Notes: generated from the sequence alone by a model not told the origin. Shown: positions 2,003 to 32,541, counted from the first letter of the stretch. The stretch is 64,000 bases of DNA from a virus (IMGVR_UViG_3300032030_000019); one strand, 5' to 3'. Program-made: numbers and translations.

Positions 2003-2677
2003 ATGATAGGTGACATTACTAATTACGAAACACAAGACGCCGAATTTTCAATACCTGAAGACGAATTACAAACGGAATTTATGCGCCTTACGTCAGCCTC
2101 AAAGAAAGAACTGACGTCATATAAAGACGCACATCCACCTACGTCTTCAGAAGCTGATGACGCACTCGATACGTTATACAAAGCGATCTCAGAGAAGTAC
2201 GGCGTTAATACACAACATAAAGACTTTAAATCATACATTAACAGCATAGCAGAGGAAACAAAACTCGATAAAGCTGTGAATGACGCAATAAGTGCAAAAG
2301 TAATCGATAGCCTAGTAACACGAACAAAAACCAAGATTATGGCATCGACGGCATTTGTGCTTGATAGAATTCAAACGCTTGTAGAACAGGAAGCGGCCTC
2401 AACGGGAGTTATAACACCTGAATTGGTCGGTGTCGCACAGAAAAACCTTGAATGGATCGACGCACTCAACAAGATAGGTGCCGGATTAACGATTAAGGAT
2501 CCTGACAAGACTATTGAACGTGCGATAGCCATGGACAAACGTGAGCATCCTGAGAAATACGTAGAAACAGATAAACAAAATACCGATTTAAGCAACAATC
2601 TAGCATTTATCAAACAAGTTCTTGCCTCACTCGACTCAAAGCAAGAACCGTCGAAAGAGGTAAAAGAGAATGCCTAA
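2003..2677 (+). CDS. Hypothetical helical protein (weak candidate terminase small subunit)
   Basis: AGGAG SD; size, helicity and TPELVGVAQKNLEWIDALNK are only loosely reminiscent of T4 gp16-type TerS. Confidence 0.55.
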   Translation: MIGDITNYETQDAEFSIPEDELQTEFMRLTSASKKELTSYKDAHPPTSSEADDALDTLYKAISEKYGVNTQHKDFKSYINSIAEETKLDKAVNDAISAKVIDSLVTRTKTKIMASTAFVLDRIQTLVEQEAASTGVITPELVGVAQKNLEWIDALNKIGAGLTIKDPDKTIERAIAMDKREHPEKYVETDKQNTDLSNNLAFIKQVLASLDSKQEPSKEVKENA

Positions 2678-3314
2678 AATTTTTATGTACAGAAACTTTG
2701 ACGGCATGGCAGCCCCGTCTACATCCGCCGGTCCTGGACTCAACGATGTAAGCAATGTAGCAGGAAATTCAGTCCGACATTTAGGTGATGACAAACGTAA
2801 AGTACTGTCTGACTTACCTAAGGACCAATTCCCACGCCGCAACATATTCTTCAACGGCTTTTCGCGGGGGCATCTGTATAAGTTTGCCGAAAGTACGGAC
2901 GACGTAAAACAGGAACCTGACACAACAGCCGCTGATAAAGCCCAAAATGATCTACAAAAAACAGCTGACGAGTTCAAAAAGCTGACACACTCATACGTAC
3001 AGCAAAACTCATGGCGATTCATGCCGTTTAACTTCGGTGGATCAATGTTTGGGGTATTAGGAAACAATGCGACTGAAACTAGCTTTAAACTCCATGATTA
3101 TAGACAGGCTGAGGCCGCAAGAAAAGCACAATCGGGTGCTATTCACAACAGAGAAACAGGCGATGCAACTCAATTTGTAAAACGAGCAGATGGTAGCGTC
3201 CAACTCGGTAATGGTAAGGGGACAATATCTCCGGAACAGATAGCATTCTGGCAAAAGCAAAAGGCTGCAGGTCAAAAATACACGCCGTACACAAATACAG
3301 TAACTGTAGGCTAA
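2670..3314 (+). CDS. Putative internal head (cargo) protein
   Basis: Leader MPKIFMYRNF-DGM; internal YKFA and PFNFG; GTISPEQ segment shared with the next gene. Confidence 0.6.
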   Translation: MPKIFMYRNFDGMAAPSTSAGPGLNDVSNVAGNSVRHLGDDKRKVLSDLPKDQFPRRNIFFNGFSRGHLYKFAESTDDVKQEPDTTAADKAQNDLQKTADEFKKLTHSYVQQNSWRFMPFNFGGSMFGVLGNNATETSFKLHDYRQAEAARKAQSGAIHNRETGDATQFVKRADGSVQLGNGKGTISPEQIAFWQKQKAAGQKYTPYTNTVTVG

Positions 3315-3343
3315 ATTCCATACACACATAAGGAGGTGACGTT

Positions 3344-4615
3344 ATGTTTTATTCACCGGCACCTACTTTCCCCACGCCGAAGACTATTCCATTTGGAGTA
3401 GGCTCAACACCGCGAATTGTGTCTCTCTTTGAAAAGGCGCACGAACCTAAGACGTGGGCTGAACGTGTAGGTATATTCAAAAAAGAAAAACCTTTGCATG
3501 AACGTCACCAAATGTTACAAAACTTAAAAACGTCATATCCAAATTATGACGGCTTCTTAGTAGGTGACAAAACACAGGTACAGTTTTCACGCTTTCCGTC
3601 ATACTTTCCCTATCGATCATACAATTTCGGATTATGGGACAAGTTGACAGGTAAGGCACAACAACCAGCTCAGCAAACACAGAAAGCAACTGAGGGCGCA
3701 TGGAATGGTGGAACGTGGAAACTGAACAATGAGGGGCATTTAATGTACCGTGGTAAGGTCGGCGGGGCACTTTCTCCTGAGCAACAACGCAGTATTTCAC
3801 AACAGCACAAGATTCCAATGAATGATTACGGACGTCTTGTCAACGCATATGCGACGGACGAAGGACGCAGCTCAGGCAACCACACCATGTATAGAACTCA
3901 GGCTATGTCCGAACGTTCCGACGTGAATGAATACGTAGGCCTCAGTGAATGCAATAAGGACGGCTACGTAGGTTTTTCAGACTTTAAGAAACAGGTACTC
4001 AACAACCTAAACAGCATCAACCAAGGCATAGAGAATTTACAGGGTGCTATGGGTGCTGGAAACATGGGAGGAATGTGGACTCCGTGGGGATTCATGCCAA
4101 ATTTTAGGTATGGTAGACCACAACAAAAAACATCCTCAACGGCAACTACCACACCCAAGAAGACCGAGGAGCCTGCCAATACATCAGAAGTAAGTAACGA
4201 CAATGAAGACACGAACAAACCTGATGAACAGCAACAACAGGAAGACACACAAAGCAAACTTGAGAAAATTGATCAGCGAATTCAACAAATAACCGAGAAG
4301 ATTCACTACCAACAGGAAGAGCGAACACGATTACAAAGAGAAATAGCTGAAAAACAAACGAAGTTAACCAGAATACAGGCTACCGGAGCATCTGATACGG
4401 CTGAACAGGTACAAAATCAGATAAACGTACTCAAGGCAAAGATGCAAGAGTGTGATTCCAAAGAGAATACGTATAACGAAGAACTGAAACGTGAGCGTGA
4501 TAAACGCAATACCATACAGACGAGTGAAAAACAGATGTCGTACGTACTCCCATATTCAGATTTACTTAACTTCTGTCGCAAATGTCGGGAGGAATTAGAC
4601 AATGACACAATCTGA
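3344..4615 (+). CDS. Putative internal head protein with C-terminal coiled coil
   Basis: AAGGAGGT SD; motifs VQFS, SYNFG, YVGFS; Q/E/K-rich heptad region at about aa 300-400. Confidence 0.6.
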   Translation: MFYSPAPTFPTPKTIPFGVGSTPRIVSLFEKAHEPKTWAERVGIFKKEKPLHERHQMLQNLKTSYPNYDGFLVGDKTQVQFSRFPSYFPYRSYNFGLWDKLTGKAQQPAQQTQKATEGAWNGGTWKLNNEGHLMYRGKVGGALSPEQQRSISQQHKIPMNDYGRLVNAYATDEGRSSGNHTMYRTQAMSERSDVNEYVGLSECNKDGYVGFSDFKKQVLNNLNSINQGIENLQGAMGAGNMGGMWTPWGFMPNFRYGRPQQKTSSTATTTPKKTEEPANTSEVSNDNEDTNKPDEQQQQEDTQSKLEKIDQRIQQITEKIHYQQEERTRLQREIAEKQTKLTRIQATGASDTAEQVQNQINVLKAKMQECDSKENTYNEELKRERDKRNTIQTSEKQMSYVLPYSDLLNFCRKCREELDNDTI

Positions 4616-5258
4616 AAAGGCAAAACGCATGAACGAACTTGTAGGTGATGAAATGATCGCACACTTACAGTATACGTTTGCGGCTAGTAAGGTCATAGGT
4701 CCTGATAATGACGCATGTAAGGCTGAATTTACAGAACATGCTCAGGAAGAGTACGATCACATGCTTAAACTTTTGGATAAAATGAACGAACAGCATATGC
4801 CAATAAACGCAGACATTTTGGCATTAACGAAGAACGCGTATTCAGGATATCAAGTTATGGATGGCGTATCTTCACATGACTTACTTCTGTTCCATCATAA
4901 TGCCGAAGTTAATGCGATTAAGGCATACAAGTCGTTCTTACGTGAGCTGAACGATGATCCTGGTTTACACAAAGTAATCGAGGATATACTTAATGACGAA
5001 CTTAAGCATCGTGTAGACCTGGAAAAGCTTGAGTCTTCCGTAGATGATCGTACGTCAAACTTAATGCCTTCTCAAGAGCTATTTTCCAAGCGCTTCGCTG
5101 CCCGGGATGAATCAAAAACATCTCTTAGAGATAGGTTTTTCGCTAGCGTAGAAGAGTTGCGTCGACGCTCACGTATGCGTATATCCGCTTATAATGGGTC
5201 TCCACGTCGGTTGGCTCGTAATCACGTATGGGCTGATGTAGGTGCCTTAAAGGGCTGA
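4602..5258 (+). CDS. Ferritin-like protein, DPS-like (DPSL)/bacterioferritin family, with basic C-terminal extension
   Basis: Four-helix di-iron ligands DEMIAHLQY, EHAQEEYDH, AEVNAI, ILNDELKH. Confidence 0.8.
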   Translation: MTQSEKAKRMNELVGDEMIAHLQYTFAASKVIGPDNDACKAEFTEHAQEEYDHMLKLLDKMNEQHMPINADILALTKNAYSGYQVMDGVSSHDLLLFHHNAEVNAIKAYKSFLRELNDDPGLHKVIEDILNDELKHRVDLEKLESSVDDRTSNLMPSQELFSKRFAARDESKTSLRDRFFASVEELRRRSRMRISAYNGSPRRLARNHVWADVGALKG

Positions 5259-5276
5259 CGTAGGAGGGCTGAAAGC

Positions 5277-5633
5277 ATGAAAGTATTCCGTTACGTGGCA
5301 TTTGCGTTAGAGAACTTGGGTGGCAATTCGTCTAATCCTATGAATGATATACTAGCCAAAAACAGACAAAAGGATGAAGAGCGTAAGTATCAAAAGCAAC
5401 TGAAATTCGAAAATGCATTGGATCGTAAGCTCTATCAGCAAGAAATGGAAGATGAATCGAAAGCACAACTTAAGCATGTGGGCGAGATGAACAGACTTCT
5501 TGCTCAGCGTGCTCAACTTACAGGAAATATGGGCGAAGGGATGCCACCACAGGCTAATCCTCAAATGTGGAACTACTATAATCCGTATTATAGCATAAAT
5601 GACCCATATTACAACAATCCATTTTCACAATAA
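5277..5633 (+). CDS. Putative internal head protein
   Basis: Leader MKVFRYVAF-A; AGGAGG SD; low-complexity N/P/Y tail. Confidence 0.65.
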   Translation: MKVFRYVAFALENLGGNSSNPMNDILAKNRQKDEERKYQKQLKFENALDRKLYQQEMEDESKAQLKHVGEMNRLLAQRAQLTGNMGEGMPPQANPQMWNYYNPYYSINDPYYNNPFSQ

Positions 5634-5648
5634 AACACGAGGTGTAAC

Positions 5649-6359: not shown

Positions 6360-6386
6360 AAAAATATATACAAAAGGTGATTTAAC

Positions 6387-7874
6387 ATGAGAATATCTGG
6401 AAATATTATTCAGGACCATGACGATTTTATGGCTTCTGTTAACGCAAAGATTAATGCAGCTCAGGATGATTTGATGTCTGCTGGTAATAATGACTTAGTT
6501 GGTTTCTCACACAGAGCTGACCGACTTAGTAAATCTGCTGAAAATTTATATTTCAGCATGGGTGATGACTGCTTCGATCCAGTACACGCAGCATTTACAT
6601 ACTTCTCAAACAAACCGGGTCTCAATGACGTAACTAACGTTGCCGCTGTTGACATTATCGATATTGGTATTCAGGCTACACGTCAGTCTGTAATGGGTTA
6701 CCTTACAGTTGAGCGAGCTATGGATAAACCTATCGATGTTGCATGGTATCAGACTCTCGTAGCTATCAACAACGCTGGTGGCTATAAGAAAGATGAAGCT
6801 GTATTCTCGCCGTTCAGCCCGATTTCTCCGTCCATTAACCTCGGACCGACATCACAGACAATCAACTTTGCAGCTACTGCAAGTGCTTCTGAGACTGCTT
6901 GGACAGTAAGTGGTGATACATACACACTGACCTTCTCAGGTGCTACAGCTGACAAGCCGTTGGTTGCTAAAAGCATTCAGTTGGTAGTTAAAGACGGCGA
7001 TACAGTAGTTGCTACTGCATCTGACCTTAAAGGCATGGATGAGGCAACAAAGCTCGGTACACTGTATTGGGATGTAGCTAGTGTATGTAAGAGTGCAACT
7101 ATCAATTACGAGACAGGTGTAATCACTATCGTAACAAACGAAGCCGGTGCTCTTGACACACTGAAAGTATCTGTAAAAGCTAACATTGAACGAACAGCCC
7201 AGAAATCAGGTGCCAACACCTTGAAAGTAAAGCCGAAAACAACGACAATTCAGTTGATTGCAAAACCGAACCGAATCATCCTTGAGAACTCGTTCGAAGA
7301 TAACGCTTACATGAACAAGCAGGCATTCAACCTAGCACAAAAGGGTATTCAGCTTGACTTCGGTAAGCGAGCAATCAATCAGCTGCTTCAGACATTTGTT
7401 GCTTATCTTGACTTTACTTCTGTTTCTGCAACATGGACAGCAGCATGCAAGACAGCTAACAATCACGCTGTAACTGAGTTGGATTTGACAGACTACCTGT
7501 TAAGCTCTTCACAGGCTGCTACAAAGTATGACTTCATCAATCAGGCTATGCTGAAATTGAATGATGACTTACTTATCAGAACAGGTAAGGGTGCAACATG
7601 TTGGTTGGTAGATAGTGAAGCTGCTCGTGTACTTGGTAACTGCCAGGCTCACTTCACAGCTAACCCGACACTGACAAGTAACTTGGATGGTGTTGTTGGT
7701 ACATATATGAATCTACCTGTTATTCGACACCACGTTCTTAACGGCGTAGTAGATCAAGCTATCTATCCGGATAAGAATCAGGTACATGGTCTTGTAATCG
7801 CAGTATTCAAATCTGATGATGGTCAGGCAGGACCTACAATGTACGGTGAATATTTGCCTCCGTTAACAAGTAAT
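6387..7874 (+). CDS. Major capsid protein, exon 1 (496 codons; T4 gp23/HK97-like)
   Basis: TLKVKPKTTTIQLIAKPNRI, GATCWLVDSE, GVVGTY, GPTMYGEYLPPL follow the gp23-type motif order; N-terminal propeptide with VGFS, LYFS and TYFS; track ORF overruns into the intron to 7910. Confidence 0.85.
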
Positions 7875-8268
7875 AAAAACCTGGGCGGGTTTTGTTACAT
7901 AGCGGCGTAATATGGTGACATATTATAGTTCATAAGCATAACACCACTTATGAAGGGTATTAATCTCGTGAATTGCTGGAAACTCGTAAAGATATCAGTA
8001 CTACAACGTAATCAGAAATGACATGCGTGAATGTTTGAAAAACTGATATTATATGACAATCAGCAGCCGAGCCTCTAATTAGGTTATGGAAGCCTATAGG
8101 AGGAAGGTTCAACGACTATCCCGCGAGGGAGTAGGGATGAATCCCGAAGGACGAGACATCTTATGTGAAAATGTAAGATGAAAATATAGTCTAAACTACA
8201 TAGAAATATGTAGGTGTATTAAAACATATCAATAAGCAAAAAAATAATAAAAAAAATGTGCAAAACAC

Positions 8269-8297
8269 TTGACTTATTAATTATCGTGTGCTATAAT
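8269..8297 (+). promoter_or_regulatory. Intron-internal sigma70-type promoter for the endonuclease ORF
   Basis: TTGACT (8269-8274), 17 bp spacer, TG-c-TATAAT (8292-8297), A-rich UP-like tract upstream. Confidence 0.8.
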
Positions 8298-8395
8298 ATT
8301 AAGTATGGGAACTCGCAGGAACTGCTTGTTAAGCAGCAATGATTCCCAACACTAAACTATGACAATCTACTGTCATGGAATTATAGGAACATTAT

Positions 8396-9565: not shown

Positions 9566-9639
9566 TACCTGAGATTAGAAAAGAGAAAATACTTAATTTT
9601 AAACACCTTCTTCCTACACATAATTTTGATAGTGTATTG

Positions 9640-9771
9640 CCCGCCCTCAATTACGATAACCCCTCACAGTTCAGCCAAGCCCTGCTCTCAATGTCAACAA
9701 CCGAGCTGCTCGTTCCTGAGTTTGCTACGTTCATGACGTTCTTGACAGCTGACTTGTCTAACCAGGGCTAA
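9640..9771 (+). CDS. Major capsid protein, exon 2 (43 aa: PALNYDNPSQFSQALLSMSTTELLVPEFATFMTFLTADLSNQG)
   Basis: Joins in frame with exon 1 (...YLPPLTSN/PALNYDNPSQF...), giving 539 aa; DNPSQF resembles the gp23 DPxSFQP motif; not in the ORF track. Confidence 0.88.
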   Translation, partial: PALNYDNPSQFSQALLSMSTTELLVPEFATFMTFLTADLSNQG

Positions 9772-9779
9772 CATAACAC

Positions 9780-9811
9780 AACGTACCGTGCTCACGTTAG
9801 TACGGTACGTT
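9780..9811 (+). terminator. Stem-loop after the capsid gene (terminator or mRNA stabiliser)
   Basis: AACGTACCGTGCT / AGTACGGTACGTT, 13-bp stem with one GU pair. Confidence 0.6.
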
Positions 9812-9846
9812 ATTAAGTAAGTAAGTAGAAATAAGAGGTAACGTAT

Positions 9847-10542
9847 ATGTTAAGATTTGATAATGATTATAATCTTCTTTGCTTTGCTAAAACCACACTT
9901 AAACAAGATGGTGCTGATATTGTTAAAGGTGCTAAAGGAGTTGGTAAAAGTGTCGTAAAAGCAGGAAAAGAAATCGGAAAGAACGTTGCGACTGCAGCAA
10001 AGGGTTTCGGACGTGGTTTCTTAAAGGTAGGTAAGCGGGCTGGTGTCGGCTATAACGATTACAAAGACGCAATAGCGAAGCCATACAACGACGCAGAAGC
10101 TAGAAAAGCTAGAAATTCTGACTACAAGAAAAACATGCTTTTAAGAGGTGCTGAAGGCGCTGCTATTGGTGGTATTAGTGGTACAGCTATCGGATATGGT
10201 GTTGGTAAAGCAAAACAGAAGAAAGCTGGACGAACAGCACGTGAGGAAGCTTCAAAAGGACTCAAGAACAAGATCCTGAATGCTCTCGATAAGTCACGAC
10301 TCGATAATATAGAAAATGCTGCTAAACGTAAAGTCAACGTAGGTGCTCATGCTCTTACAGGAGGCGCTATTGGTACTCTTGGTGGTGGAGCTCTTGGACT
10401 TGGTGGTGGTGCAATCGAAACTGGTGCAAAACACGCACGTGCTCTTGCTAAAGCTTACGACGCAGCCCATCCTGGTGTAGATAAAGCAACACGAAAGGCT
10501 GGTATCAAAGAATGGCGAAAAGCAATCAGTGACGCAAAATAA
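9847..10542 (+). CDS. Lys-rich glycine-zipper protein, putative head cargo
   Basis: Leader ending YNLLCF-A; 11-residue KG repeats; GxxxG runs; AREEAS...NIENAAK segment shared with 23819 gene. Confidence 0.7.
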   Translation: MLRFDNDYNLLCFAKTTLKQDGADIVKGAKGVGKSVVKAGKEIGKNVATAAKGFGRGFLKVGKRAGVGYNDYKDAIAKPYNDAEARKARNSDYKKNMLLRGAEGAAIGGISGTAIGYGVGKAKQKKAGRTAREEASKGLKNKILNALDKSRLDNIENAAKRKVNVGAHALTGGAIGTLGGGALGLGGGAIETGAKHARALAKAYDAAHPGVDKATRKAGIKEWRKAISDAK

Positions 10543-10573
10543 ATAAACCCAAACGCGACGTAAGGAGGTGCGT

Positions 10574-12903: not shown

Positions 12904-13791
12904 ATGAAAGTATATACATTTTCATACGACATACAGGTTCCCGAAGGAGCTGTAAAAGGAGCATTGGTCGGGGCAGGTGTAGGGACGGTCGCTTCGATCA
13001 TTAAACAAATTAAGAATAAAAAGCTTAATGTAAAGGATGCTCTAAAGAAAGCTGGGGTCGGTGCGTTAGCAGGTGCAGGTGTAGGAGCAGCTTCAAGTGC
13101 GATAGGGGAACATGCTAGACATGAGAAGATGAGAAAGCTCGGGTACAGGGTTGATCACTCAGGCAACGCATACTTCGTAGATAAGAAAGGTAATCCTCAT
13201 AAAGTAGCTATACAGAAAGATGGTGGGGAACTAGCATATGGTGGATATCTGCCAACAGTTCATCCTAATTCTGTGCTCAAAGACAAAAAGGGGAGGCCTC
13301 GTCTAGTTACAGAGCGCCACATGCGTAAGCTTATACATAAACTTCAGGGGATTGATTTGCCTAGAGATGTAGATAAAAATGGAGCAATAGTCATTAACCC
13401 CAAGAAGTATAACTATGATAAAGAAAAAATGGAAGCTGTTATAGGCCACGAACTTGGTCACAAACTCAAAGACAGATCTTCCATAAAACTACGCAAGGGT
13501 AAAATATCTCAAGATGAGTTTCTACGCTTACCACCTAAAGCAAAACAAAAGAGTGAGACAACCGCAGATAAATACGCGGTAAAGCGTGGTGCTAATCCAT
13601 CGCATCTTAATAAAGAAGTTCTCAGGATCACAAAAGAATCACTTGAAAAAGCACATCCAAAATGGGCTAAAGAAACCCCGGAGAACGAGAAGAACAGAGT
13701 AGTACACGAACTCAATAAGCAATATCGTGGTACTTGGCTCGAAGATCAAGCAAGAAAATGGGAAAGTAAGCATCCCGAAGAAACAACCTGA
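12904..13791 (+). CDS. Glycine-zipper plus HExxH zinc metallopeptidase-like protein
   Basis: Leader MKVYTF-S; GALVGAGVG; AVIGHELGHK ... SETTADKYA. Confidence 0.7.
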   Translation: MKVYTFSYDIQVPEGAVKGALVGAGVGTVASIIKQIKNKKLNVKDALKKAGVGALAGAGVGAASSAIGEHARHEKMRKLGYRVDHSGNAYFVDKKGNPHKVAIQKDGGELAYGGYLPTVHPNSVLKDKKGRPRLVTERHMRKLIHKLQGIDLPRDVDKNGAIVINPKKYNYDKEKMEAVIGHELGHKLKDRSSIKLRKGKISQDEFLRLPPKAKQKSETTADKYAVKRGANPSHLNKEVLRITKESLEKAHPKWAKETPENEKNRVVHELNKQYRGTWLEDQARKWESKHPEETT

Positions 13792-13831: not shown

Positions 13832-14167
13832 ATGAATTATTCTGAATATATATTATTTAGTGGTTATCAAGCTACTATGGAGAAGGCTCAGCAAACTGGC
13901 AATACTGCCCTAGCAGCGATGACCTCCGCTAGACATCGTGCCAGGGTAGGAGCTGGAAATGTAGATCATTATATAAATGATGCATATCGTTATCGAGACA
14001 AGAATCGAGACGCTTATAACAAAGGACTAACTCTTCAAAAAGGACTCATCGAGCAAAAACTAAACAAAGATAACTCAGAGCCTAATTTACAACAGCGTCT
14101 AGAGTCCTTCAAAGAAAAGAAACGTAAGGAAGCTCTTGCTCGCAAACCTAGAATAATGATTGGCTAA
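13832..14167 (+). CDS. Putative internal head protein
   Basis: Start moved from 13727 to ATG 13832 (AGAGG SD); leader MNYSEYILF-S. Confidence 0.65.
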   Translation: MNYSEYILFSGYQATMEKAQQTGNTALAAMTSARHRARVGAGNVDHYINDAYRYRDKNRDAYNKGLTLQKGLIEQKLNKDNSEPNLQQRLESFKEKKRKEALARKPRIMIG

Positions 14168-14203
14168 TTTAAACAACAACACACACAGACGTAGGAGTAA
14201 CGT

Positions 14204-15813: not shown

Positions 15814-17163
15814 ATGAGAAACAATAACAACTATGACATTACCGTCAAAGTATGTGATTTTTCGACACCAAGTAAGAGTGCTCATAAAATCATTGACGGC
15901 GCCTTTTTTCAAAACAATGTCCTCGATAGTGCAAAATGGCAAGACAAACTAAAAAGAGGACAAGTACTCGGGTTGTTTACGCACAAAGGTAGGCAACCAC
16001 GAGAACAGATACGAGAAATACCATATGAGGACAATATTGCTCTATCCCCATACCTATGCAATGTAGCAAAGGAAGTATGGAGAGATGGCGATTCCTTATT
16101 CGCAGGACTCGATCTATTTGACAACAGGGAGTATGGAGCTCTCCTGAAAGATATGCTCAAACGAGGCATGAATGTACCTGTGTCCATGGCCGTAAGAGCA
16201 GCGGCAGACATGAATCGATTCTATGTCAAGGATCTTTTAGGCGTAGATTTCACTTTCAAGCCCGATCTAGAGGCCGAAATCGTACGCATAAACTTTAGTG
16301 AGACTGACGACAACTCAAGTAATGATGACGTGTTCTGCTATTTTTCATATTTCCCAGAAGATGATGATGTATATCTTGGAAGTAGATTAAATGTATCAGA
16401 ACCTAAGATCTACGACATGAGTAGACCAACGGATTTTTCTGATAATACTTATGAGATATTCTTACCTCCGGAAAAATACCCACAGCTTGAAGAGTTGAAT
16501 ATTAAATTCAGCAGAGATGAAACTCTTGTAAACGGCATGATGCCTATACGTATCCGTGATGTCGATTCTCTGAATTCAACTCAACGCAACTTCATAACAG
16601 AATTTGATTCTACATTCTTTACTGTCAACAACAATAAAGATAACGGGCCTACGATAGGGCTTACAGAAGATGACGAAGAAGTAGAAACGTTTAGTGACGA
16701 GAAGCTTGAAGAGATATTTTGGAATACATCTGAGATTGATTTTTCACTCCAATTATATCTACAGGAATTAAAGCTGGCTCCGCATCAAGTATTAAAGAAA
16801 CGTATTCTGGAAGTAATCAGATGGGTATCAGCAAACAGTCAAGATAAAGTAGTAAAAGCGAGTCCAACCATAAAATCGTATATTGATACGTATGTATTAA
16901 AGTGGGTACACGACACACTTAACAATCCGACTGAACATTTCAATTTAATGTTGGGTTTACGTTTGATGAATTACAACATCAATCGTACAGACCTGATTGA
17001 TTTACAACGGAATCTAAACCGATGTAAACAAACGTTACTACAGTCAGGATCCATGCAACCTGCTTTACAGACAACCCTTAACCATTCATACAGAAAAGTC
17101 ATTGACGGACTGTATGATTATATCAATGAACAGTGTGCTCGATCTGGGCATCATCTTGTGTAA
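15814..17163 (+). CDS. Prohead maturation protease with long C-terminal extension
   Basis: VLGLFTH (His), VPVSMA (Ser), GVDFTFKPD: gp21/assemblin-type order; extension contains INFS, CYFS, TDFS, IKFS, ETFS, IDFS. Confidence 0.78.
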   Translation: MRNNNNYDITVKVCDFSTPSKSAHKIIDGAFFQNNVLDSAKWQDKLKRGQVLGLFTHKGRQPREQIREIPYEDNIALSPYLCNVAKEVWRDGDSLFAGLDLFDNREYGALLKDMLKRGMNVPVSMAVRAAADMNRFYVKDLLGVDFTFKPDLEAEIVRINFSETDDNSSNDDVFCYFSYFPEDDDVYLGSRLNVSEPKIYDMSRPTDFSDNTYEIFLPPEKYPQLEELNIKFSRDETLVNGMMPIRIRDVDSLNSTQRNFITEFDSTFFTVNNNKDNGPTIGLTEDDEEVETFSDEKLEEIFWNTSEIDFSLQLYLQELKLAPHQVLKKRILEVIRWVSANSQDKVVKASPTIKSYIDTYVLKWVHDTLNNPTEHFNLMLGLRLMNYNINRTDLIDLQRNLNRCKQTLLQSGSMQPALQTTLNHSYRKVIDGLYDYINEQCARSGHHLV

Positions 17164-17175
17164 GAGGTATGCAAT

Positions 17176-19005: not shown

Positions 19006-19368
19006 ATGAATTATATTGAATATACATTCTCTCTTTTCAAAAAGAAAGAAGAGCCTAAACCGAAGTCAGCAATGGAAAGTCTCGCGGAAGCAGCAGGTGA
19101 GTTCGCAAGACAGAAGGGTATGGCAGAGCGACAGGTCTTAGCAACAGGCAAGAAAGGTCTTTTGAAAGAGTACTACAAAAACAACTCTCTAGCAGGTAAG
19201 GCAGAAAATGCTGCTCATGCAATCAAGAGTATTCGAAAGAGTATGAGTGCAACTCCATGGGAGTGGCTAACACAGGGATTAATGACCGAAAGAGGACGTA
19301 AGAACCTCAAAGCCTCAGAGAAGCTCGCTCACGCAATCGTGAAAGAAGCTAAAAAGCGAGACCAATAA
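19006..19368 (+). CDS. Basic putative internal head protein
   Basis: Leader MNYIEYTF-S; GGAGGT SD. Confidence 0.7.
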   Translation: MNYIEYTFSLFKKKEEPKPKSAMESLAEAAGEFARQKGMAERQVLATGKKGLLKEYYKNNSLAGKAENAAHAIKSIRKSMSATPWEWLTQGLMTERGRKNLKASEKLAHAIVKEAKKRDQ

Positions 19369-20070: not shown

Positions 20071-20077
20071 CGTAAGC

Positions 20078-20284
20078 ATGAACTATATAGAGTATGTTAA
20101 TTTTACATTACGTCAGGACGCTCAAAAATATCAGGACGTGCCATCACGTGAGCTCGTACGAAACATTACGCAGGAACTACGTCCACAAACAACGCAGGCA
20201 CCAAGTTCAATAGCCAAAGAAGTAAAGAAGACGTTGCGTGATGACGCCGCAAAAAGGGTATACGTTGGAGGAAATATGTTATGA
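20078..20284 (+). CDS. Small putative internal head protein
   Basis: Leader MNYIEYVNF-T; ATGA overlap with the next gene. Confidence 0.6.
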   Translation: MNYIEYVNFTLRQDAQKYQDVPSRELVRNITQELRPQTTQAPSSIAKEVKKTLRDDAAKRVYVGGNML

Positions 20285-21963: not shown

Positions 21964-23799
21964 ATGCAAAATTACTATAATGATTACTACCAATTTGGTG
22001 TTTGGGATGGTGTCAAAAATACATGGAATACCATCAGAGCGATACCTAAGATTGCAAGTGGTATCGGAGCTATCAAGGACTTTGGCAAAACAGGTGATTT
22101 CAATAAATTGGTAGACTGGGGTAAAGAGAACTTCAAAGGGAACCCCATGATTGATAAAGCCGTGAGTTGGGCCAAAGATAATAAGGCATTACTAGGTGGT
22201 TTAGCGACCGCTGGTGTTGGTGCATTAGCAAATCACTTTGCCAATAAGAACAATCAAAAACAAGTCATGATGGGACTGATGCCAGGTATGGGCGGTGGCA
22301 TGATGCCAATGATGAATCCATACATGGGTATGATGCCAATGATGAATCCGTATATGGGCATGGGAATGATGCCAGGTATGGGCGGTGGTTACTATACTGT
22401 AACACGTGGTGGTGGAAATAACGGCAATGGGTTCTTTGGTAACTTAATGCAAGCAGCGACACCTCTTCTAGCCGCTTATGGAATCAATAAGTGGATGAAT
22501 GGTCAACAAAAGACTGAGGAAGAGAAAAATGAAAGTGATATAGAAGGAAGATTATCAAAGCTATACCAGGCCAATGCACAAAATGCAACAAATATCAAGG
22601 CAGAATATGATAAACTTGCTCAAACACTGGGAGAAAAAGGTGCTATTGCTACGCTTGAACAAAAATACAAAAATGGATATACAGTCACAGAAAACCCAGA
22701 CGACGTACAAGAACGTTTAAATAAATTATATCAAGCTAATCCTAAAAACTCACAGGCAATCAAGTCCGAATTTGACAGTCTAGTATCATCATTAGGTGAA
22801 AAGGGTGCGATAACAACTCTTGAGAACAAATATAAAGGTGGGTATTACGAAGAGAAAGAAGAAACGACTCCTCAAACAGCAGCCGATAAAATACGTAGTA
22901 CATTCGGACAGAAACGCTCGTGGTGGGATATAGCTGGAAAAATCAGAGACCGTAATGCTAAAACACGTTACGACCAAGCTATATCAGGCATGACAGAAGA
23001 TCAACGAGACGCCTTTCAGAAACATATTGTCAAGAACATGGAACAAGGTAATAGTTGGCGAAGCGCCATTAATGCACAGGTAGCCACTATAAACAGACAA
23101 GGCGGTGGTCAAAAAGTAAACAGAAAAAAGAATCAAGAACAAACTACAACAGCGCCATCCACCCAAGCTATAGCCAACGCCACTACGGATAGTCAGGATC
23201 CAACTAAGAATCCGTATGCAGATTTCTCCTACTCACCCCTTGACGAAATACAAGGACGTTTCAAAGACGTGTACTTTGGTTCGTGGGACTTCTTAACTCC
23301 TGAAACAAAAAAAAAGGACGTCAAAGCCTTAGCAGCCCGAATTAAGCCAGGTGATGGCATAAGTGTAAACAAAGGACCATACGCACACTACGCGATTTAC
23401 ATAGGTGACGGCAAAGTAATTGAACATACAGGGGTTGATAGCAAATATCAACGTGGTGGAAACAATAAATCACAAATGGGTAGTTTAAAGGATTTTATGG
23501 CTGGTCGTGGTAATGAGGCGGTAACGATTCATAAATCTAGAAAATTTAGCCCAGAAACCGTAGTACAGCGAGCCAAGAATGCATATAATTTAAAAGATTT
23601 ACCATATGATGCAGCAAAGAACAATTGTGAACATTTTATGGAAGAAATCTTAAATGGTGAACATAAATCACATCAAGTTAAAAACATACAGAATCTTGTA
23701 CGCGGAATCGGCTATATGGGGAAAGAAGGATTAAAGAATTACGACAAAGACATAGATAAAAGTGCTAAAAAATACAGTAAGATGTACAAGCACATTTAA
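21964..23799 (+). CDS. Multimodule protein with C-terminal LRAT-like domain
   Basis: Leader ending DYYQF-G; Met/Gly repeats; two ~47-aa repeats; KPGD...YAHYAIYIGDG...YDAAKNNCEHF. Confidence 0.8.
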   Translation: MQNYYNDYYQFGVWDGVKNTWNTIRAIPKIASGIGAIKDFGKTGDFNKLVDWGKENFKGNPMIDKAVSWAKDNKALLGGLATAGVGALANHFANKNNQKQVMMGLMPGMGGGMMPMMNPYMGMMPMMNPYMGMGMMPGMGGGYYTVTRGGGNNGNGFFGNLMQAATPLLAAYGINKWMNGQQKTEEEKNESDIEGRLSKLYQANAQNATNIKAEYDKLAQTLGEKGAIATLEQKYKNGYTVTENPDDVQERLNKLYQANPKNSQAIKSEFDSLVSSLGEKGAITTLENKYKGGYYEEKEETTPQTAADKIRSTFGQKRSWWDIAGKIRDRNAKTRYDQAISGMTEDQRDAFQKHIVKNMEQGNSWRSAINAQVATINRQGGGQKVNRKKNQEQTTTAPSTQAIANATTDSQDPTKNPYADFSYSPLDEIQGRFKDVYFGSWDFLTPETKKKDVKALAARIKPGDGISVNKGPYAHYAIYIGDGKVIEHTGVDSKYQRGGNNKSQMGSLKDFMAGRGNEAVTIHKSRKFSPETVVQRAKNAYNLKDLPYDAAKNNCEHFMEEILNGEHKSHQVKNIQNLVRGIGYMGKEGLKNYDKDIDKSAKKYSKMYKHI

Positions 23800-25222: not shown

Positions 25223-25225
25223 CGT

Positions 25226-25762
25226 ATGTATAACTTTAGTGACTCACGTTTTGACGAATTTATTCACGAATTAGGTAAACGTAATAAACACGTATCTAAA
25301 GAAGGTCAACGTTTGCTTGATAAGATTAAACCAGGTGACGGACTTGAAGTTGATCGTGGATTTTATCGCCATTACGGAGTGTACTTAGGCAACAACGTTA
25401 TACTCGAATTAAACGGAAGCACGTCAGGTAAAAACAAAAGCAGACTAATTGATGTGGATACGTTTCTACGAGATCAGAAAGCAAGTGACGTAACCGCACA
25501 TGTGTCACATAAGTTTACACTTTCGCAAATACGTGAACGTGCAAAGAACGCCATAAATCATGTCAAACTTCCTTATAACTTAGTGACGAACAATTGCGAA
25601 CATTTCATGGAAGAAATACTTAATGGCAAACATGAGTCACATCAGGTCAAAAGTGTGGGTACGTACGCGGGTACAATCTCACGTGGGATCGGACGTCATT
25701 GGGATAGTTTGTACAAGAAGAACTCGGACAAGAAAAGGAAGTTCTATAGGAGCTTCTTATAA
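25226..25762 (+). CDS. Stand-alone LRAT-like domain protein
   Basis: Leader MYNF-S; KPGD...YRHYGVYLG...YNLVTNNCEHF. Confidence 0.8.
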   Translation: MYNFSDSRFDEFIHELGKRNKHVSKEGQRLLDKIKPGDGLEVDRGFYRHYGVYLGNNVILELNGSTSGKNKSRLIDVDTFLRDQKASDVTAHVSHKFTLSQIRERAKNAINHVKLPYNLVTNNCEHFMEEILNGKHESHQVKSVGTYAGTISRGIGRHWDSLYKKNSDKKRKFYRSFL

Positions 25763-25792
25763 GTTATCAAATTTTAACACATATATTTCCTC

Positions 25793-25820
25793 TTGTAATA
25801 TAGGCACGACGTTGTATTAT
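25793..25820 (+). promoter_or_regulatory. Possible sigma70-type promoter
   Basis: TTGTAA (25793-25798), 16 bp spacer, TATTAT (25815-25820). Confidence 0.35.
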
Positions 25821-25846
25821 ATATATACGGGGGGGGGCAAAAAAAA

Positions 25847-26212
25847 ATGAATTACGTAGAATATCAATTTAGCATTTACAACCAGCCAACAGTGCCGTTT
25901 TCTCTTGTGAATTTTGGATTTAATCGTCTATTACAAAGTGCGGCACGTCGTGGAGATTTTCAAAAAGTTTCTAAATTAAGAAGCTCACAGATGTATAGAG
26001 AAGGGAAAACTCTGGAGGATATGAGAAAACTAAAGAGAGATATTTGGAAAACATTACCGATTGATTCTCCAGAACGTGGCACTCTCAAGACGATGTTTAG
26101 GGCCGCTCGAAATACATTTGACAGACAGGATGATAAAAACGCCGCAGCGACTAGTGCTGCTTACAGAGAAGCTTCATATAATAATATGAAGCGTGCAATG
26201 GGAGAGCTGTAA
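25847..26212 (+). CDS. Basic putative internal head protein
   Basis: Leader MNYVEYQF-S; preceded by G9-C-A9. Confidence 0.7.
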   Translation: MNYVEYQFSIYNQPTVPFSLVNFGFNRLLQSAARRGDFQKVSKLRSSQMYREGKTLEDMRKLKRDIWKTLPIDSPERGTLKTMFRAARNTFDRQDDKNAAATSAAYREASYNNMKRAMGEL

Positions 26213-26291
26213 CAATAAACCACAACTAACAATAAACCACAATAAAAATATTCCTCCTCACATATATATATGTATATGGGGGGGGGGTATT

Positions 26292-26597
26292 ATGAATTTT
26301 TTAGAATATAACTTTACAAGATGGGGAAAATACATGACATTAGCAGCCAAAGCTGTAAAGAATAACGACCCCGAAGGTTATCGCCGATGGGCAACAAAAG
26401 GATTAGTTAAAGAAGATAGGATTTACAATAAGGGAGACCTCAAGAATCTGCCCGCTAGCAAAAGACTAGCTGCTTATAGGCAACATGATAAAGATCTGAA
26501 TGCTGTAGAAAAAGCAAATAATGTATTTCAAGCACATCCTAATCCTAAGCGATTTAACAATTTTGAAATCACTCCTCATCCATCTTACAACCCATAA
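26292..26597 (+). CDS. Basic putative internal head protein
   Basis: Start moved to ATG 26292; leader MNFLEYNF-T; preceded by G10. Confidence 0.65.
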   Translation: MNFLEYNFTRWGKYMTLAAKAVKNNDPEGYRRWATKGLVKEDRIYNKGDLKNLPASKRLAAYRQHDKDLNAVEKANNVFQAHPNPKRFNNFEITPHPSYNP

Positions 26598-26615
26598 AAA
26601 GCATAGGAGCCACAT

Positions 26616-28463: not shown

Positions 28464-28477
28464 CGAGGGACCTCACA

Positions 28478-29998
28478 ATGAGCAAGATTTACGCACCATA
28501 CAATTTTGGTTTAAAGGACGCTGTTGTAAAAGGTGCTACAACCGCTGCCATTAATAACTTAGCGAAGAATGGTCTAGAAGACACGTTAAGAAAAGCGGAT
28601 AGAATAGGTCGTGTAGTCAACGCCGGTGCAAAAGCAATACATGGTGTCAAGACTGCGGCTAAAACAGTAGGACACGGAGTAGCGACAGCGGGAAAGGCCG
28701 TTGGACATGGAGTAGCAACCGCAGGTAAAGCCGTAGGCCATGGTGTAGCTGCTACAGGCAAGGCAATTGGTAATGTTGGGAAGAATATGTGGTATGGTGG
28801 TGGTGATACGTTAGCCAAAACAGCCTTACGTGCAACCGTCGTTAACCCGATTAAAGAAACAGTCGCAGGTGTAGGTGGTGCCGCTCGAGGTTTTTGGGAT
28901 AAATTCAAACAAGGTGATATTCTCGGAAGCATTGGTGGTGCAGTTAAGGGGGCTTGGCAGTCTTCTCGATACCAAGCTAAAGAAAACCATTTACTACATG
29001 CCTTAAAGAACAAATTTGGCGATAAATACAGTCCCCAGGAACTCGAAGCTATAGCAAAACAACAGGTTACGAATGTAGCGGATGCACGTGGGGTAACAAT
29101 GGGACCTATGTGGATGAATAAAATGAGAAATCAGACAATGGCTTATCAAGGTATGCAAGGTAGCCCGTTTGCAGGATATACTCCATACGGTGGCTATTTT
29201 CAGTTCTCACGGCCAACGAATTTCTCTTATGGGGTTCAGGTAGCTTCAAACGCCATAAAAGGTCTGAAAATAGGCGTAGGCACAGGCTTAGTTGCAGGGG
29301 GCACAGGACTAGCATCAAAAAAGATTGATGCTAAAACAGCGGCCCTTCTCGCAGGCGGTACGTCACTACTTGGTGCTGGAATAGGCGCCGCTAAAGGCGC
29401 CATAAGTGAGCACCGACGTCACCGCAAAGCACGTAAGGCCGGACTTGATACAGACGTGAATGGAATAGCTACGATAAAGGATAAGGATGGCAATGAGTAT
29501 AAGATTTCGCTTCAACCTGATACAGGACGTGTAAACGGTGGTGCGTATATGCAGGAACGTAACCTTGAACACCACGCAAAAAGTCTAAAGAACAGGCTTA
29601 ACTATTATAAAAAGACAAAAGTAGATCTTCCACGTGGGGTAAAAGGGAAAGACATGATCCTGATTAATCCCAAAACAGCTGACTACGACGCAGATGCCAT
29701 TAAAGGCATTACGTTACATGAAGTAGGCCATAAACAAACGCAAGATCTTATGCATAAACATGATAAGCAATACCAGAACATGCGACGTGAGGAAGAAGCC
29801 GTTGCTGACAAGTATGCGATTGAACATGGTGCCGATCCTAAGGTAATGTTAGCACTCTTGGAAAAACAAACACGTAGGGACTATAGTAGGAACCCAAAAT
29901 TCGCGAACTTACCCAAAGAGAAACAGGACGCAATCGTACGTAGAGCCATACAAAACTATCGTGGAGATTATCTGCATAAACAGGCCGAGAAAGATTGA
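28478..29998 (+). CDS. Two-module protein: 11-mer amphipathic repeat module plus glycine-zipper/HExxH peptidase module
   Basis: Leader ending APYNF-G; KAVGHGVATAG repeats; junction YFQFS...TNFS; LHEVGHK...EAVADKYA paralogous to 12904 gene. Confidence 0.78.
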   Translation: MSKIYAPYNFGLKDAVVKGATTAAINNLAKNGLEDTLRKADRIGRVVNAGAKAIHGVKTAAKTVGHGVATAGKAVGHGVATAGKAVGHGVAATGKAIGNVGKNMWYGGGDTLAKTALRATVVNPIKETVAGVGGAARGFWDKFKQGDILGSIGGAVKGAWQSSRYQAKENHLLHALKNKFGDKYSPQELEAIAKQQVTNVADARGVTMGPMWMNKMRNQTMAYQGMQGSPFAGYTPYGGYFQFSRPTNFSYGVQVASNAIKGLKIGVGTGLVAGGTGLASKKIDAKTAALLAGGTSLLGAGIGAAKGAISEHRRHRKARKAGLDTDVNGIATIKDKDGNEYKISLQPDTGRVNGGAYMQERNLEHHAKSLKNRLNYYKKTKVDLPRGVKGKDMILINPKTADYDADAIKGITLHEVGHKQTQDLMHKHDKQYQNMRREEEAVADKYAIEHGADPKVMLALLEKQTRRDYSRNPKFANLPKEKQDAIVRRAIQNYRGDYLHKQAEKD

Positions 29999-30032
29999 GG
30001 TAATATATGTACAAACGTAGGAGGTAACGTAT

Positions 30033-31337
30033 ATGAGCGCCATGTACGCACAACACACACGCAAACGTTACCTCCACGGTATGGTACTAACGTCAGACAA
30101 GATTGACACAGTATGTTTTAAGCCCATACGTGAGTTAAGTAAGCCGTTTGAAGCTGAATATGACTTTGCGAATCGCTTACTTGAGATTACGTACGCACCT
30201 GATTGTACCACCGAAGATTTGCACAGAATTAAGGAAGTTACGTCAGTCGATTTACGTATAGTTGAAGGCTTACAGGGATGTTATGACTTAATGGATACGA
30301 TAACGTGTAATGACGTAGAGTACATACAGGGTGAAATTCCGGTGCGTACGTTAAGCCAATACTTAGTTGCGGATCGTATATGCGTAAGTTCTGACGTAGT
30401 AATGTATGATGGTTGTTGTAACATATTGATACGTGAGTCTGATTTAAAAGATGAAACGTTTGATTACTTGAACTTTGTAAACAGTCACGATGAAGTGTAT
30501 GCATGGATCAAACCTAAAGACCCATACAAAAAGGGTCCATGGTTGCCACACGTACATCCTATGTTAGCTGATTATATCAACGGACGTCAGGAAGAACATA
30601 TGTCTGACGTTGTGCTTACTAACATATATCAGGTGATTTTTGACAATCAAGAATACAAATACATAGATAAAAGTATAGCGGGATTAATACCCGATTACGA
30701 GGTGAATGATGTAAAAGTATTCGCTAGGTTTATAGAAGTATTGAAAGAAAAATACCCGACGATTAACTTTTATACAAATCCCGAAGACAGAAATAATACT
30801 GAATACAACGAATGGATTCATTATAAAATGGAACATCGGGCTGTACATAGTAACTTATGGAGTGGACGTGCTTATACGTCACCACTCGTAGGTAAATTCT
30901 GGCCAACCACAGTGGATTTTAGTCTTGAATATTCCACAACAGATTTACCGCGTCTTTTAGCGAGGCGTGATGAGCATACAACCGACTTATTTATGGTTGG
31001 CATACATAAGTTCAACATAAATGTTGGTATAAGTTACACGGGTGATAGTTTCGAAATGCCTTGCGCGATGTTTTGGGACAGAGACGAGTTGCCAAATAAT
31101 TATCAACAGCAAACAGAGCAAGATGATACAGGTTATAGCATGTATTCATGGACCTTTACAGGAAGAATACAGTACACAAACATACAATACAAGGTTCAAC
31201 CTGTCTCACCAATTATTACTGTTTTATGTTCGATTATAGCCAAAGAAAAGAACGCACCTAAGGTTATTGCGGAGTTAGAAGCTACGCAACTACAGCCCGA
31301 AGAAGATAATGAAGAAAACACGGGGGTAATCCTATGA
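30033..31337 (+). CDS. Possible tail completion/terminator protein
   Basis: C-half beta pattern PTTVDFSLEYSTTD...WTFTGRI; lies near the sheath gene. Confidence 0.4.
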   Translation: MSAMYAQHTRKRYLHGMVLTSDKIDTVCFKPIRELSKPFEAEYDFANRLLEITYAPDCTTEDLHRIKEVTSVDLRIVEGLQGCYDLMDTITCNDVEYIQGEIPVRTLSQYLVADRICVSSDVVMYDGCCNILIRESDLKDETFDYLNFVNSHDEVYAWIKPKDPYKKGPWLPHVHPMLADYINGRQEEHMSDVVLTNIYQVIFDNQEYKYIDKSIAGLIPDYEVNDVKVFARFIEVLKEKYPTINFYTNPEDRNNTEYNEWIHYKMEHRAVHSNLWSGRAYTSPLVGKFWPTTVDFSLEYSTTDLPRLLARRDEHTTDLFMVGIHKFNINVGISYTGDSFEMPCAMFWDRDELPNNYQQQTEQDDTGYSMYSWTFTGRIQYTNIQYKVQPVSPIITVLCSIIAKEKNAPKVIAELEATQLQPEEDNEENTGVIL

Positions 31338-31612
31338 TTTACAGATATGAGAACTTCGATGCAGTTATAGACGACGCTGTACGAGCACGAGCTAATAAAG
31401 TAGCAAAGGGTAATTTGTTCAGAACATTCGGCTATTACTTACAAGGTAAAAAGTTTGCAAAAGAAGATATAAGAAAACCAAAGTATGAACGTATGTACCA
31501 AAAAGCACTACGTAAGAATCCAACATTATCGCGAAAGAAATTCGAGAAAGACCTTATACGTAAGAAAGCTATAGAATACACAGTTGATCAGAGCGGATGG
31601 CAAAACAACTAA
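31334..31612 (+). CDS. Small basic putative internal head protein
   Basis: Leader MIYRYENF-D; RKNPTLSRK motif. Confidence 0.65.
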   Translation: MIYRYENFDAVIDDAVRARANKVAKGNLFRTFGYYLQGKKFAKEDIRKPKYERMYQKALRKNPTLSRKKFEKDLIRKKAIEYTVDQSGWQNN

Positions 31613-31634
31613 AGGCACTACATGGAGGTAGGAT

Positions 31635-32165
31635 ATGACAATATATCGATATGTAGATTTTGGTACTAAAAACCCGATTCAGCTGTCTCAACCGGGTGGG
31701 GCTATGGGTACTGATTGGTGGAGCCCTACTAAACTTATTAAAGAGGGCTTAGCCAAAGACGCCGCAGGAGCTATTTGGAGAAACCGTCATCGTGTAATTA
31801 AAAGTGCGAGAGAAGGTTATCAAAACGCGAAAGACAAGCTAGAAAATGAGATAGAAGAAAAATATCAGATAGCCCGAGAGATAGATCCAAATATCACACG
31901 GAAAGAGTTTGAAAAGAAGGCCGGGTTACGTGGCTGGTCAGGTTTTAAGGCCAAGCAGGGCTATAAATTAGCACACATGGGGGCTCATTTGGTTAAAAAT
32001 GATGCTCCTACAGTTCTGATTTCTGATGTCAAAGAACAAACGTACAAGAAAGCAAAACGCGAGTCCGATGCACAACATCGTATAGCTATGAAGGATCGTG
32101 ATAAGATACTTAAGGAAAACATACGCCTACGTGAACAACTTGCAAAAGCACAAAACCGAGGTTAA
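31635..32165 (+). CDS. Basic putative internal head protein
   Basis: Leader MTIYRYVDF-G; EIDPNITRKEF motif. Confidence 0.65.
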   Translation: MTIYRYVDFGTKNPIQLSQPGGAMGTDWWSPTKLIKEGLAKDAAGAIWRNRHRVIKSAREGYQNAKDKLENEIEEKYQIAREIDPNITRKEFEKKAGLRGWSGFKAKQGYKLAHMGAHLVKNDAPTVLISDVKEQTYKKAKRESDAQHRIAMKDRDKILKENIRLREQLAKAQNRG

Positions 32166-32169
32166 TGCC

Positions 32170-32541
32170 ATGAAGATATACACATACGTAGGTTTTAATG
32201 TTGACAAAAAGAAAGTATCTAAAAAGGACGACAAAGAGCTATCATGGGATAAAGGTTCGCGACGTGTGCTAACTGATGCGACAATCGGATTAGGTGTAGG
32301 CGGGGTCGTAGGCGGGATTGCGACGGCTATACGTTTTAGAAAAATGGTAAAACAATTAATGAAAGTCAACCCGAATTTAACCTTGGAACAGGCTAAGGAT
32401 ATTGCACGTAAAAAGTACAGTATTGGTGAGGGAATTGCTTCAGGAATGTCAGCAGGGTCAACGTTAGGTGGATTGGTAGGATACACGAAAAATGAGATTC
32501 AATCCACAAAATACATTCATAATCATAAAAAGGGAAAATAA
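32170..32541 (+). CDS. Glycine-zipper putative internal head protein
   Basis: Start moved to ATG 32170; leader MKIYTYVGF-N; two GxxxG helices. Confidence 0.65.
   Translation: MKIYTYVGFNVDKKKVSKKDDKELSWDKGSRRVLTDATIGLGVGGVVGGIATAIRFRKMVKQLMKVNPNLTLEQAKDIARKKYSIGEGIASGMSAGSTLGGLVGYTKNEIQSTKYIHNHKKGK

Follow-up and report, generated by a model that had tools for sequence, protein, structure and literature searches.

Phe-ending leaders on head-module genes

The window analyzed here is a stretch of 64,000 nucleotides (nt) of viral DNA (IMGVR_UViG_3300032030_000019), which is part of a 133-kb contig of JGI sample 3300028888 and which carries a phage head module with many genes that open with a short, tyrosine-rich leader ending in phenylalanine. 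Every long open reading frame (ORF) of the window is on the + strand. The myovirus tail module, marked by the genes of the sheath (32560) and the tube (37341), extends from 32560 on, and the region 5′ of it is the head module, which encodes a portal-like protein, a protease, a scaffold-like protein, and the major capsid protein (Table 1; genes and their products are named here by the start position of the gene). According to the listing of sequencing runs, sheep and goat gut metagenomes carry the window DNA, and none of the listed runs is RNA. Neither megablast with 10 kb nor tblastn with the 15814 protease gave a match to cultured-phage records, and hence there was no relative in culture for which a virion proteome could be consulted; a search of IMG/VR with the portal and the 26616 protein gave no close relative.

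A reading made from the sequence alone had listed 16 genes with such leaders, and all 16 N-termini read as it described at the starts that it gave. To count leaders by rule, a strict motif was defined as [YFW]-x(1-2)-F-[STGADN] with its start at one of the first 11 residues, and its expected count was derived from how often it occurs inside the window's own proteins. The strict motif opens 15 of the 56 window genes, versus 2.1 expected (binomial p 1.5e-9). These matches are 14 of the 16 listed genes together with the gene at 48130; among the remaining two, 3344 is a weak candidate, while 9847 fails the strict form but has an ortholog in a related phage (L001, described below) with a leader ending in YQNF-A. 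The leaders are 3–13 amino acids (aa) long, and in all 15 strict-motif leaders the last residue before the presumed cut (P1) is Phe. The following residue (P1′) is Ala in two of the 15 and far more commonly Ser, Gly, Asp, Asn, or Thr.

The leaders are concentrated in the head module, where 14 of 33 genes have the motif, compared with one of 34 genes outside it, a set made up of the window tail genes and 11 genes that lie upstream on the same contig (Fisher p 9e-5). Among the genes compared, the motif is not equally common outside the head module. The sequence-only reading had also seen no leader on tail-module genes after 32560, which is not exact, because the start of the 48130 gene is a strict match, though one or two matches are expected by chance. 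This gene (48130-49260) lies downstream of the sheath gene, the tube gene, and the gene of a 1077-aa protein, and its start may be a chance match (about two expected), or the gene may encode a head or ejection protein among the tail genes.

The N-terminal junctions also differ from other Phe-small residue pairs in the same proteins. An aromatic residue is present at P3/P4 in 15 of 22 N-terminal sites (68%) versus 63 of 308 internal ones (20%; p 5e-6), and five unrelated small proteins of the window (class A in Table 1), as well as five in L001, have MN[YF]xEY upstream of the cut. The enrichment of the motif and the P3/P4 statistics rule out chance or composition as its origin. The leader codons are AT-rich, but synonymous codons differ between leaders, which indicates selection on the peptide and rules out a nucleotide-level signal. 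Most leader genes have a Shine-Dalgarno-like run 5–10 nt upstream, or are translationally coupled. Just 5′ of the starts at 25847 and 26292 there are runs of guanosines, G9 (followed by C and A8) at 25829-25846 and G10 at 26278-26287, which may be ribosome-binding sites or slippage-prone tracts.

The proteins behind the leaders are diverse. They include two paralogous HExxH peptidases with M48-like matches and two domains of the LRAT/NlpC-P60 type (E 7e-17 and 5e-16). Glycine-zipper segments are present in several of the proteins, and about 10 are small proteins without a recognizable family. The bodies had been described as mostly unrelated, and this holds, as paralogy among the leader-bearing genes is limited to the pairs 12904/28478 and 21964/25226.

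Table 1. Leaders, predicted processing sites, and main head-module genes of the window
Feature	Coordinates	Strand	Remarks
Leader MPKIFMYRNF-D, 214-aa protein (gene 2670-3314)	2670..2699	+	Strict motif
Weak candidate leader MFY-S, 423-aa protein (gene 3344-4615)	3344..3352	+	Fails strict motif; P1 is Tyr
Leader MKVFRYVAF-A, 118-aa protein	5277..5303	+	Strict motif
Major capsid protein (gene 6387-7874)	6387	+	Model matches known capsid proteins
Predicted N-terminal propeptide of major capsid protein (aa 1-73)	6387..6605	+	Sites VGF-S41, LYF-S57, F70-x-x-F73-S74
Leader MLRFDNDYNLLCF-A, 231-aa Gly-zipper protein	9847..9885	+	Fails strict motif
Leader MKVYTF-S, 295-aa HExxH (M48-like) peptidase	12904..12921	+	Strict motif
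Class-A leader MNYSEYILF-S, 111-aa protein	13832..13858	+	Strict motif; L001 ortholog MNFIEYNF-G
Portal-like protein, 531 aa	14204	+	
Protease, 449 aa	15814	+	
Prohead protease catalytic domain (aa 1-161)	15814..16296	+	Ends at conserved N160-F161-S162 site
Protease linker and conserved C-terminal domain (aa ~300-449)	16297..17163	+	Further F-S sites CYF-S, TDF-S, IKF-S, ETF-S, IDF-S
Scaffold-like acidic protein, 588 aa	17176..18942	+	
Class-A leader MNYIEYTF-S, 120-aa protein	19006..19029	+	Strict motif; L001 ortholog MNFIEYNF-A
Class-A leader MNYIEYVNF-T, 68-aa protein	20078..20104	+	Strict motif; L001 ortholog MNYIQYINF-T
Leader MQNYYNDYYQF-G, 611-aa protein with C-terminal LRAT/NlpC-P60 domain	21964..21996	+	Strict motif
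Leader MYNF-S, stand-alone 178-aa LRAT-domain protein	25226..25237	+	Strict motif; paralog of 21964 C-terminal module
Class-A leader MNYVEYQF-S, 121-aa protein	25847..25870	+	Strict motif
Class-A leader MNFLEYNF-T, 101-aa protein	26292..26315	+	Strict motif
Leader MSKIYAPYNF-G, 506-aa protein	28478..28507	+	Strict motif
Internal junction PTNF249-S250 of 28478 protein	29213..29227	+	Aligns with 12904 leader junction F6-S7
Leader MIYRYENF-D, 92-aa protein	31334..31357	+	Strict motif
Leader MTIYRYVDF-G, 176-aa protein	31635..31661	+	Strict motif
Leader MKIYTYVGF-N, 123-aa protein	32170..32196	+	Strict motif
Leader-like start MIKEYKYRDF-N, 376-aa tail-module protein	48130..48159	+	Strict motif

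The protease and its predicted cut sites

Sequence profiles gave no Pfam or PHROG match for the 15814 protein at E values up to 0.01, and a sequence search of solved structures returned no protease among its matches at E values up to 10. An exhaustive search for the protein yielded 69 representative clusters, and the N-terminal domains of 39 homologs were aligned. Residues H57, R60, D73, S124, and G143 are invariant in this alignment, and H57 and S124 are on this basis the predicted catalytic histidine and serine. The AlphaFold2 (AF2) model of the N-terminal domain (pLDDT 93) had its best fold match in T4 gp21 (5jbl_A), with a Z score of 12.1 and a root-mean-square deviation of 2.4 Å over 127 residues, while the Z scores were 7–9 against herpesvirus assemblins and at most 4.4 against unrelated folds. 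As modeled, the domain has the T4 gp21/assemblin fold.

In proteases of the gp21/assemblin fold that release themselves, a cut site lies immediately C-terminal to the catalytic domain. In nearly all of the 39 homologs, down to about 25% identity, the sequence N-F-S directly follows this domain; the conserved site of the protease itself is I/V-N-F-S, which is without the aromatic at P3/P4. In some relatives the C-terminal domain of the protease is a separate gene with its own leader of 15–25 residues, ending in (N/S)F-S. When distant relatives with a domain end other than N-F-S were sought (P0062 and P0067; short contigs), one case was informative, and it still had F-S: in L012 (3609-4660) the gene of a 158-aa catalytic domain ends in a stop codon, and a separate, overlapping gene for the C-terminal domain begins with a 20-residue leader ending in ISF-S. 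A complex prediction for residues 1-158 of the protease and residues 1-40 of the 19006 protein gave a score of 0.23, which is below the mark and uninformative either way.

The same junction was found in the major capsid protein. The F73-S74 junction is kept in 30 of 33 homologs (at least 90%), down to 32% identity, and F or Y is at P4 in 31 of the 33. The AF2 model shows helix over residues 11-57 and disorder over residues 59-99, followed by the folded shell domain, so that F73-S74 is located between the helical N-terminal part and the shell domain, at the boundary of helix and disorder. By the model, this is where the removal of a capsid propeptide is expected. Fold matches of the model were the phage capsid proteins of P1 (E 7e-11), S6, T4, and phiKZ. 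Only exon 1 was taken for the capsid analysis. Downstream of the capsid ORF, which ends with a stop at 7910, there is a 389-aa ORF (8396-9565). Positions 1995-3870 of L001 have the same layout as 7875-9640 of the window: the capsid ORF ends in the same tail, GGFCYIAA, and there is a homologous ORF of 396 aa. This layout is consistent with an intron and its endonuclease, as the sequence-only reading had proposed.

Further candidate sites are present in the scaffold-like protein and inside two of the leader-bearing proteins. The scaffold-like protein contains 17 [FY][ST] dipeptides, mostly in the form aromatic-aromatic-Ser followed by Glu or Asp. In the 28478 protein the internal sequence PTNF249-S250-YGVQV matches the leader junction KVYTF6-S7-YDIQV of its paralog 12904 residue for residue (BLAST q6-285 / s249-505, E 8e-30), and the 21964 protein has an internal YADF421-S422 site before its LRAT module, the stand-alone paralog of which (25226) starts with MYNF-S. 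The proposal that the protease reads a Phe-specific cut code is thus well supported by comparative evidence, namely the predicted gp21 fold, N-F-S after the catalytic domain, the F-S junction of the capsid protein, the sites in the scaffold and the protease linker, and the junctions in fusion proteins.

The leaders in related phages

Two related phage contigs, L001 and L004, were reached through portal homologs. L001 comes from the same sample, JGI 3300028888, and its portal is 78% identical to that of the window. The L001 and L009 contigs of JGI 3300028888 (133 kb and 103 kb; 78% portal identity) place two related phages in one metagenome. L004 is a 158-kb contig in an NCBI assembly, with 46% portal identity. 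The strict motif opens six of 25 genes in L001 (p 3e-4) and 11 of 29 in L004 (p 3e-8), while the leader was absent from all 18 opposite-strand, early-type genes adjoining the two head modules.

The orthologous genes of L001 keep the leaders, which differ in length and sequence but have the same ending. The 21964 leader MQNYYNDYYQF-G corresponds to a 14-residue L001 leader ending in DYNF-G, and the 25226 leader MYNF-S to MNFPKYINF-N. In L004, 11 unrelated head-module genes open with the nearly uniform sequence M-I-[QRKN]-[YH]-Y-[NETV]-F, typically MIQYYNF, followed by a small or polar residue. The internal sites of L004 vary far more than this leader, which has Tyr-Tyr in P4/P3 and Ile in P6. 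More distantly, a 44%-identical ortholog of 12904 (P0079) has a different, 12-residue leader ending in NHNF, followed by the same mature start SYDIQ, and genes adjoining the protease in distant relatives have shorter leaders such as MKINF-S, MKSNF-S, MELNNF-S, MVRKNF-D, MTNF-S, and MDIDNKNF-S. A metagenome search with eight protease sequences added three new loci, all of them short. A scan of IMG/VR with a degenerate MIQYYNF pattern gave seven single matches, about the chance level, none of which recurred among leader-type ORF starts.

The proposed role of the leaders

We consider it probable that the leaders are capsid-targeting propeptides of the T4 type, which would have a Phe-P1 code in place of (L/I)-x-E and would be cut by the 15814 protease. 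The last four residues of the leader (aromatic-x-x-Phe, followed by a small residue) would be the recognition and cut site of this gp21-like prohead serine protease. The tagged proteins would be built into a scaffold-filled prohead along with the protease, which would then release itself at its NF-S site, shred the scaffold at the many aromatic-Ser sites, remove the 73-residue capsid propeptide at F73-S74, and finally clip the leaders from the tagged proteins and split the fusion proteins into their modules. By analogy with T4, the aromatic pair of the leader is probably also an address into the prohead core, in which case address and cut site overlap. The tagged set most likely consists of internal-head or ejection proteins, and the enzymes and membrane-active segments in it fit ejection proteins. 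We infer capsid targeting, retention in the virion, injection, and the cleavage itself.

It could instead be that the phage protease trims these N-termini at a site that is not an address, so that the bodies mediate entry into the prohead, or the proteins are ordinary structural proteins of the head, and trimming merely yields the right mature N-terminus or frees the proteins from the core. The shortest leaders are indeed little more than Met and the cut site, orthologs share mature N-termini, such as SYDIQ, and short propeptides are likewise removed from structural proteins such as T4 gp24 (PMC9026906). On the other hand, the leader has conserved positions that are absent from the protease's own site, namely Tyr-Tyr (P4/P3) and Ile (P6) in L004, and MN[YF]xEY in the window and L001, and the equivalent 10 residues in T4 suffice for targeting (PMC9026906). 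The N-terminal excess of aromatics at P3/P4 and the uniformity of the L004 leader mean that the leader holds more than a bare cut site, and this additional information would fit an address function. Trimming without targeting seems to us rather unlikely.

Several observations nevertheless weigh against the leaders being targeting propeptides. The phage is uncultivated, and cleavage is deduced here at the level of sequence. In leaders of 4–6 residues (MYNF, MKINF), hardly any sequence is left for an address once the cut site is taken into account. The protease's own I/V-N-F-S site, in which P3/P4 are not aromatic, suggests that the tyrosines of the leader are not needed for cleavage. The 48130 protein would be out of reach of a prohead protease if it is assembled into the tail, and many of the [FY]S dipeptides of the scaffold could be repeat structure rather than cut sites.

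It is improbable that the cut is made by a host protease, such as the cysteine protease Prp. Prp cleaves between Phe and a small residue, within the sequence MLxx(D/N)LQ(F/L)F'A(S/H)KK, and removes short N-terminal leaders; it has also been reported in all spirochaetes, with FlhB as a possible substrate (PMC9405229, PMC5744158). However, the junction kept right after the catalytic domain of the phage protease in the 39 diverse homologs is as expected for self-release, and many of the sites are internal (in the scaffold, the protease linker, the capsid propeptide, and the fusions), while Prp is known only for N-terminal leaders. In addition, P1′ is rarely Ala in the window leaders, which have no L-Q at P4-P3, and a scan of about 40 window proteins against Pfam gave no match to the Prp family.

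It is less probable still that the leader stays uncleaved and serves in assembly or binding, marks the protein for recognition by a modifying enzyme, or acts in translation initiation through AT-rich first codons, because even though the leader codons are AT-rich and the case for cleavage is built from sequences, it is the peptide and not the nucleotides that is conserved, the same junction recurs at internal positions where processing is expected, and no radical-SAM or other modifying enzyme was found among the scanned head-module genes.

If the leaders are targeting propeptides cut by the phage protease, this interpretation could be taken one step further, although we hold the extension to be doubtful. 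The aromatic leader and the approximately 15 aromatic-Ser repeats of the scaffold would then be one element, with multivalent aromatic contacts joining the cargo to the core, and the Phe-specific protease would cut these contacts, which would dissolve the core and free the cargo at the same time. A single four-residue code, readable from sequence, would in this case serve as address, glue, and cut site and would list the packaged proteome of the uncultivated clade.

Comparison with known leader systems

The sequence-only reading had compared the leaders with the capsid-targeting sequence (CTS) of T4, and the analogy is apt. The CTS of the T4 internal proteins IPI–III and of Alt is removed by the prohead protease gp21 (Mullaney and Black 1996; reviewed in PMC9026906, PMC3012670). 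It has 10 residues, with residues 4 and 7 required for targeting and residues 8 and 10 for processing, and the N-terminal 10 residues of IPIII are sufficient to direct packaging (PMC9026906). Like the leaders of the window, it is short (10–19 aa in our comparison), is located at the N-terminus of otherwise unrelated proteins, and ends in the cut site of a prohead protease. The two systems also share the protease fold, as noted above for gp21, a capsid protein of the T4/P1 type, and, here at the level of sequence, the use of the same code at the scaffold, the capsid propeptide, and the protease itself. Residues 4 and 7 of the T4 CTS, Tyr and Phe, form an aromatic pair that is spaced like the one in the window leaders. 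The differences lie in the code, because the predicted cut in the window follows Phe (aromatic-x-x-F, then a small residue), while T4 cuts after Glu in (L/I)-x-E; in the arrangement, because address and cut site would overlap in the window leaders, while they are adjacent in T4; and in the protease, which has no match to the T4 family at the sequence level. Additionally, about 40% of the head-module genes of the window are tagged, as judged from the genes, and several of them encode enzymes or multi-module fusions.

In phiKZ-like giant phages (SPN3US gp245, phiKZ gp175) the propeptides have the motif A/S/G-x-E and are mostly 111–254 residues long, with two short ones of 20 and 24 residues (PMC10052503). 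As proposed for the window, the prohead protease of these phages trims many head and ejection proteins at a motif, with several cuts per propeptide, and cuts itself C-terminally; in contrast, the leaders described here are 3–13 residues long and end in Phe rather than in A/S/G-x-E.

Prp trims ribosomal protein L27 as well as the capsid and scaffold proteins of Staphylococcus phage 80alpha, in each case taking off an N-terminal extension that ends in Phe (PMC5744158, PMC9405229), and spirochaetes have Prp even though they are without a long L27 (PMC9405229). The likeness consists in the short N-terminal leader cut after Phe before a small residue. In 80alpha, however, a host cysteine protease cuts only two proteins at a motif of the L-Q-F-F-A type, while in the window a phage serine protease is likely and internal sites are present, and the window leaders do not have the Prp motif MLxx(D/N)LQ(F/L)F-A(S/H)KK. 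In phage P1, the capsid protein of which is the closest structural match to that of the window, an N-terminal packaging signal of about 30 residues loads the anti-host protein DarB and depends on other Dar proteins (PMC9024508). This signal is longer than the window leaders, with neither a known shared motif nor a known cut site.

What appears to be new in the window is an aromatic-x-x-Phe code with overlapping address and cut site, a protease that is kin to gp21 in fold only, and the large tagged share of the head module; in the literature we found no description of a Phe-specific prohead serine protease or of such leaders. If the proposed role is correct, the packaged and trimmed head proteins of an uncultured clade of ruminant-gut phages could be read from sequence, and their cargo would include peptidases, LRAT/NlpC-P60-type enzymes, and membrane-active Gly-zipper proteins. 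The maturation proteases of the gp21/herpesvirus type would gain a Phe-P1 specificity class, and the design of one leader for many cargo proteins would recur outside the T4 lineage with a different protease code. It would also provide a second, very short (4–9 residues) tag, perhaps usable for loading foreign proteins into capsids, like the T4 CTS.

Other features of the head module

Two genes may have longer leaders, which the strict motif misses. The gene at 2003-2677 opens with MIGDITNYETQDAEF-S, and the gene at 11287-12312 with MLDDAINLTMRGF-G, the L001 counterpart of which is MLDAAINMTLRGF-G. A 390-aa protein with Pro/Gln-rich repeats (APQPQ...; 20281-21453) starts with MIY-A, and its L001 ortholog (16134-17273) with MMY-A, which may be a minimal leader with Tyr at P1, like MFY-S of 3344.

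The junction of the 2670 protein, YRNF-DGMAAP, resembles the sequence YYNF-DGMPAP of the scaffold. After its leader this protein reads DGMAAP...GPGLNDVSNVAG, which corresponds to the scaffold junction (YYNF-DGMPAP) joined to the mature N-terminus of the capsid protein, SNKPGLNDVTNVAA. Judged by this similarity, the 2670 protein may be a minor capsid protein, or one associated with a vertex, with an N-arm copied from the capsid protein.

The head module also encodes a ferritin/Dps-like protein (4602-5258; PF00210, E 2.9e-9), which is without an N-terminal leader. In the distant relative L007 a resolvase gene and two TnpB (Cas12f1-like_TNB) genes (14097-15711, 19963-21258) are located in the head module, adjoining the capsid gene.

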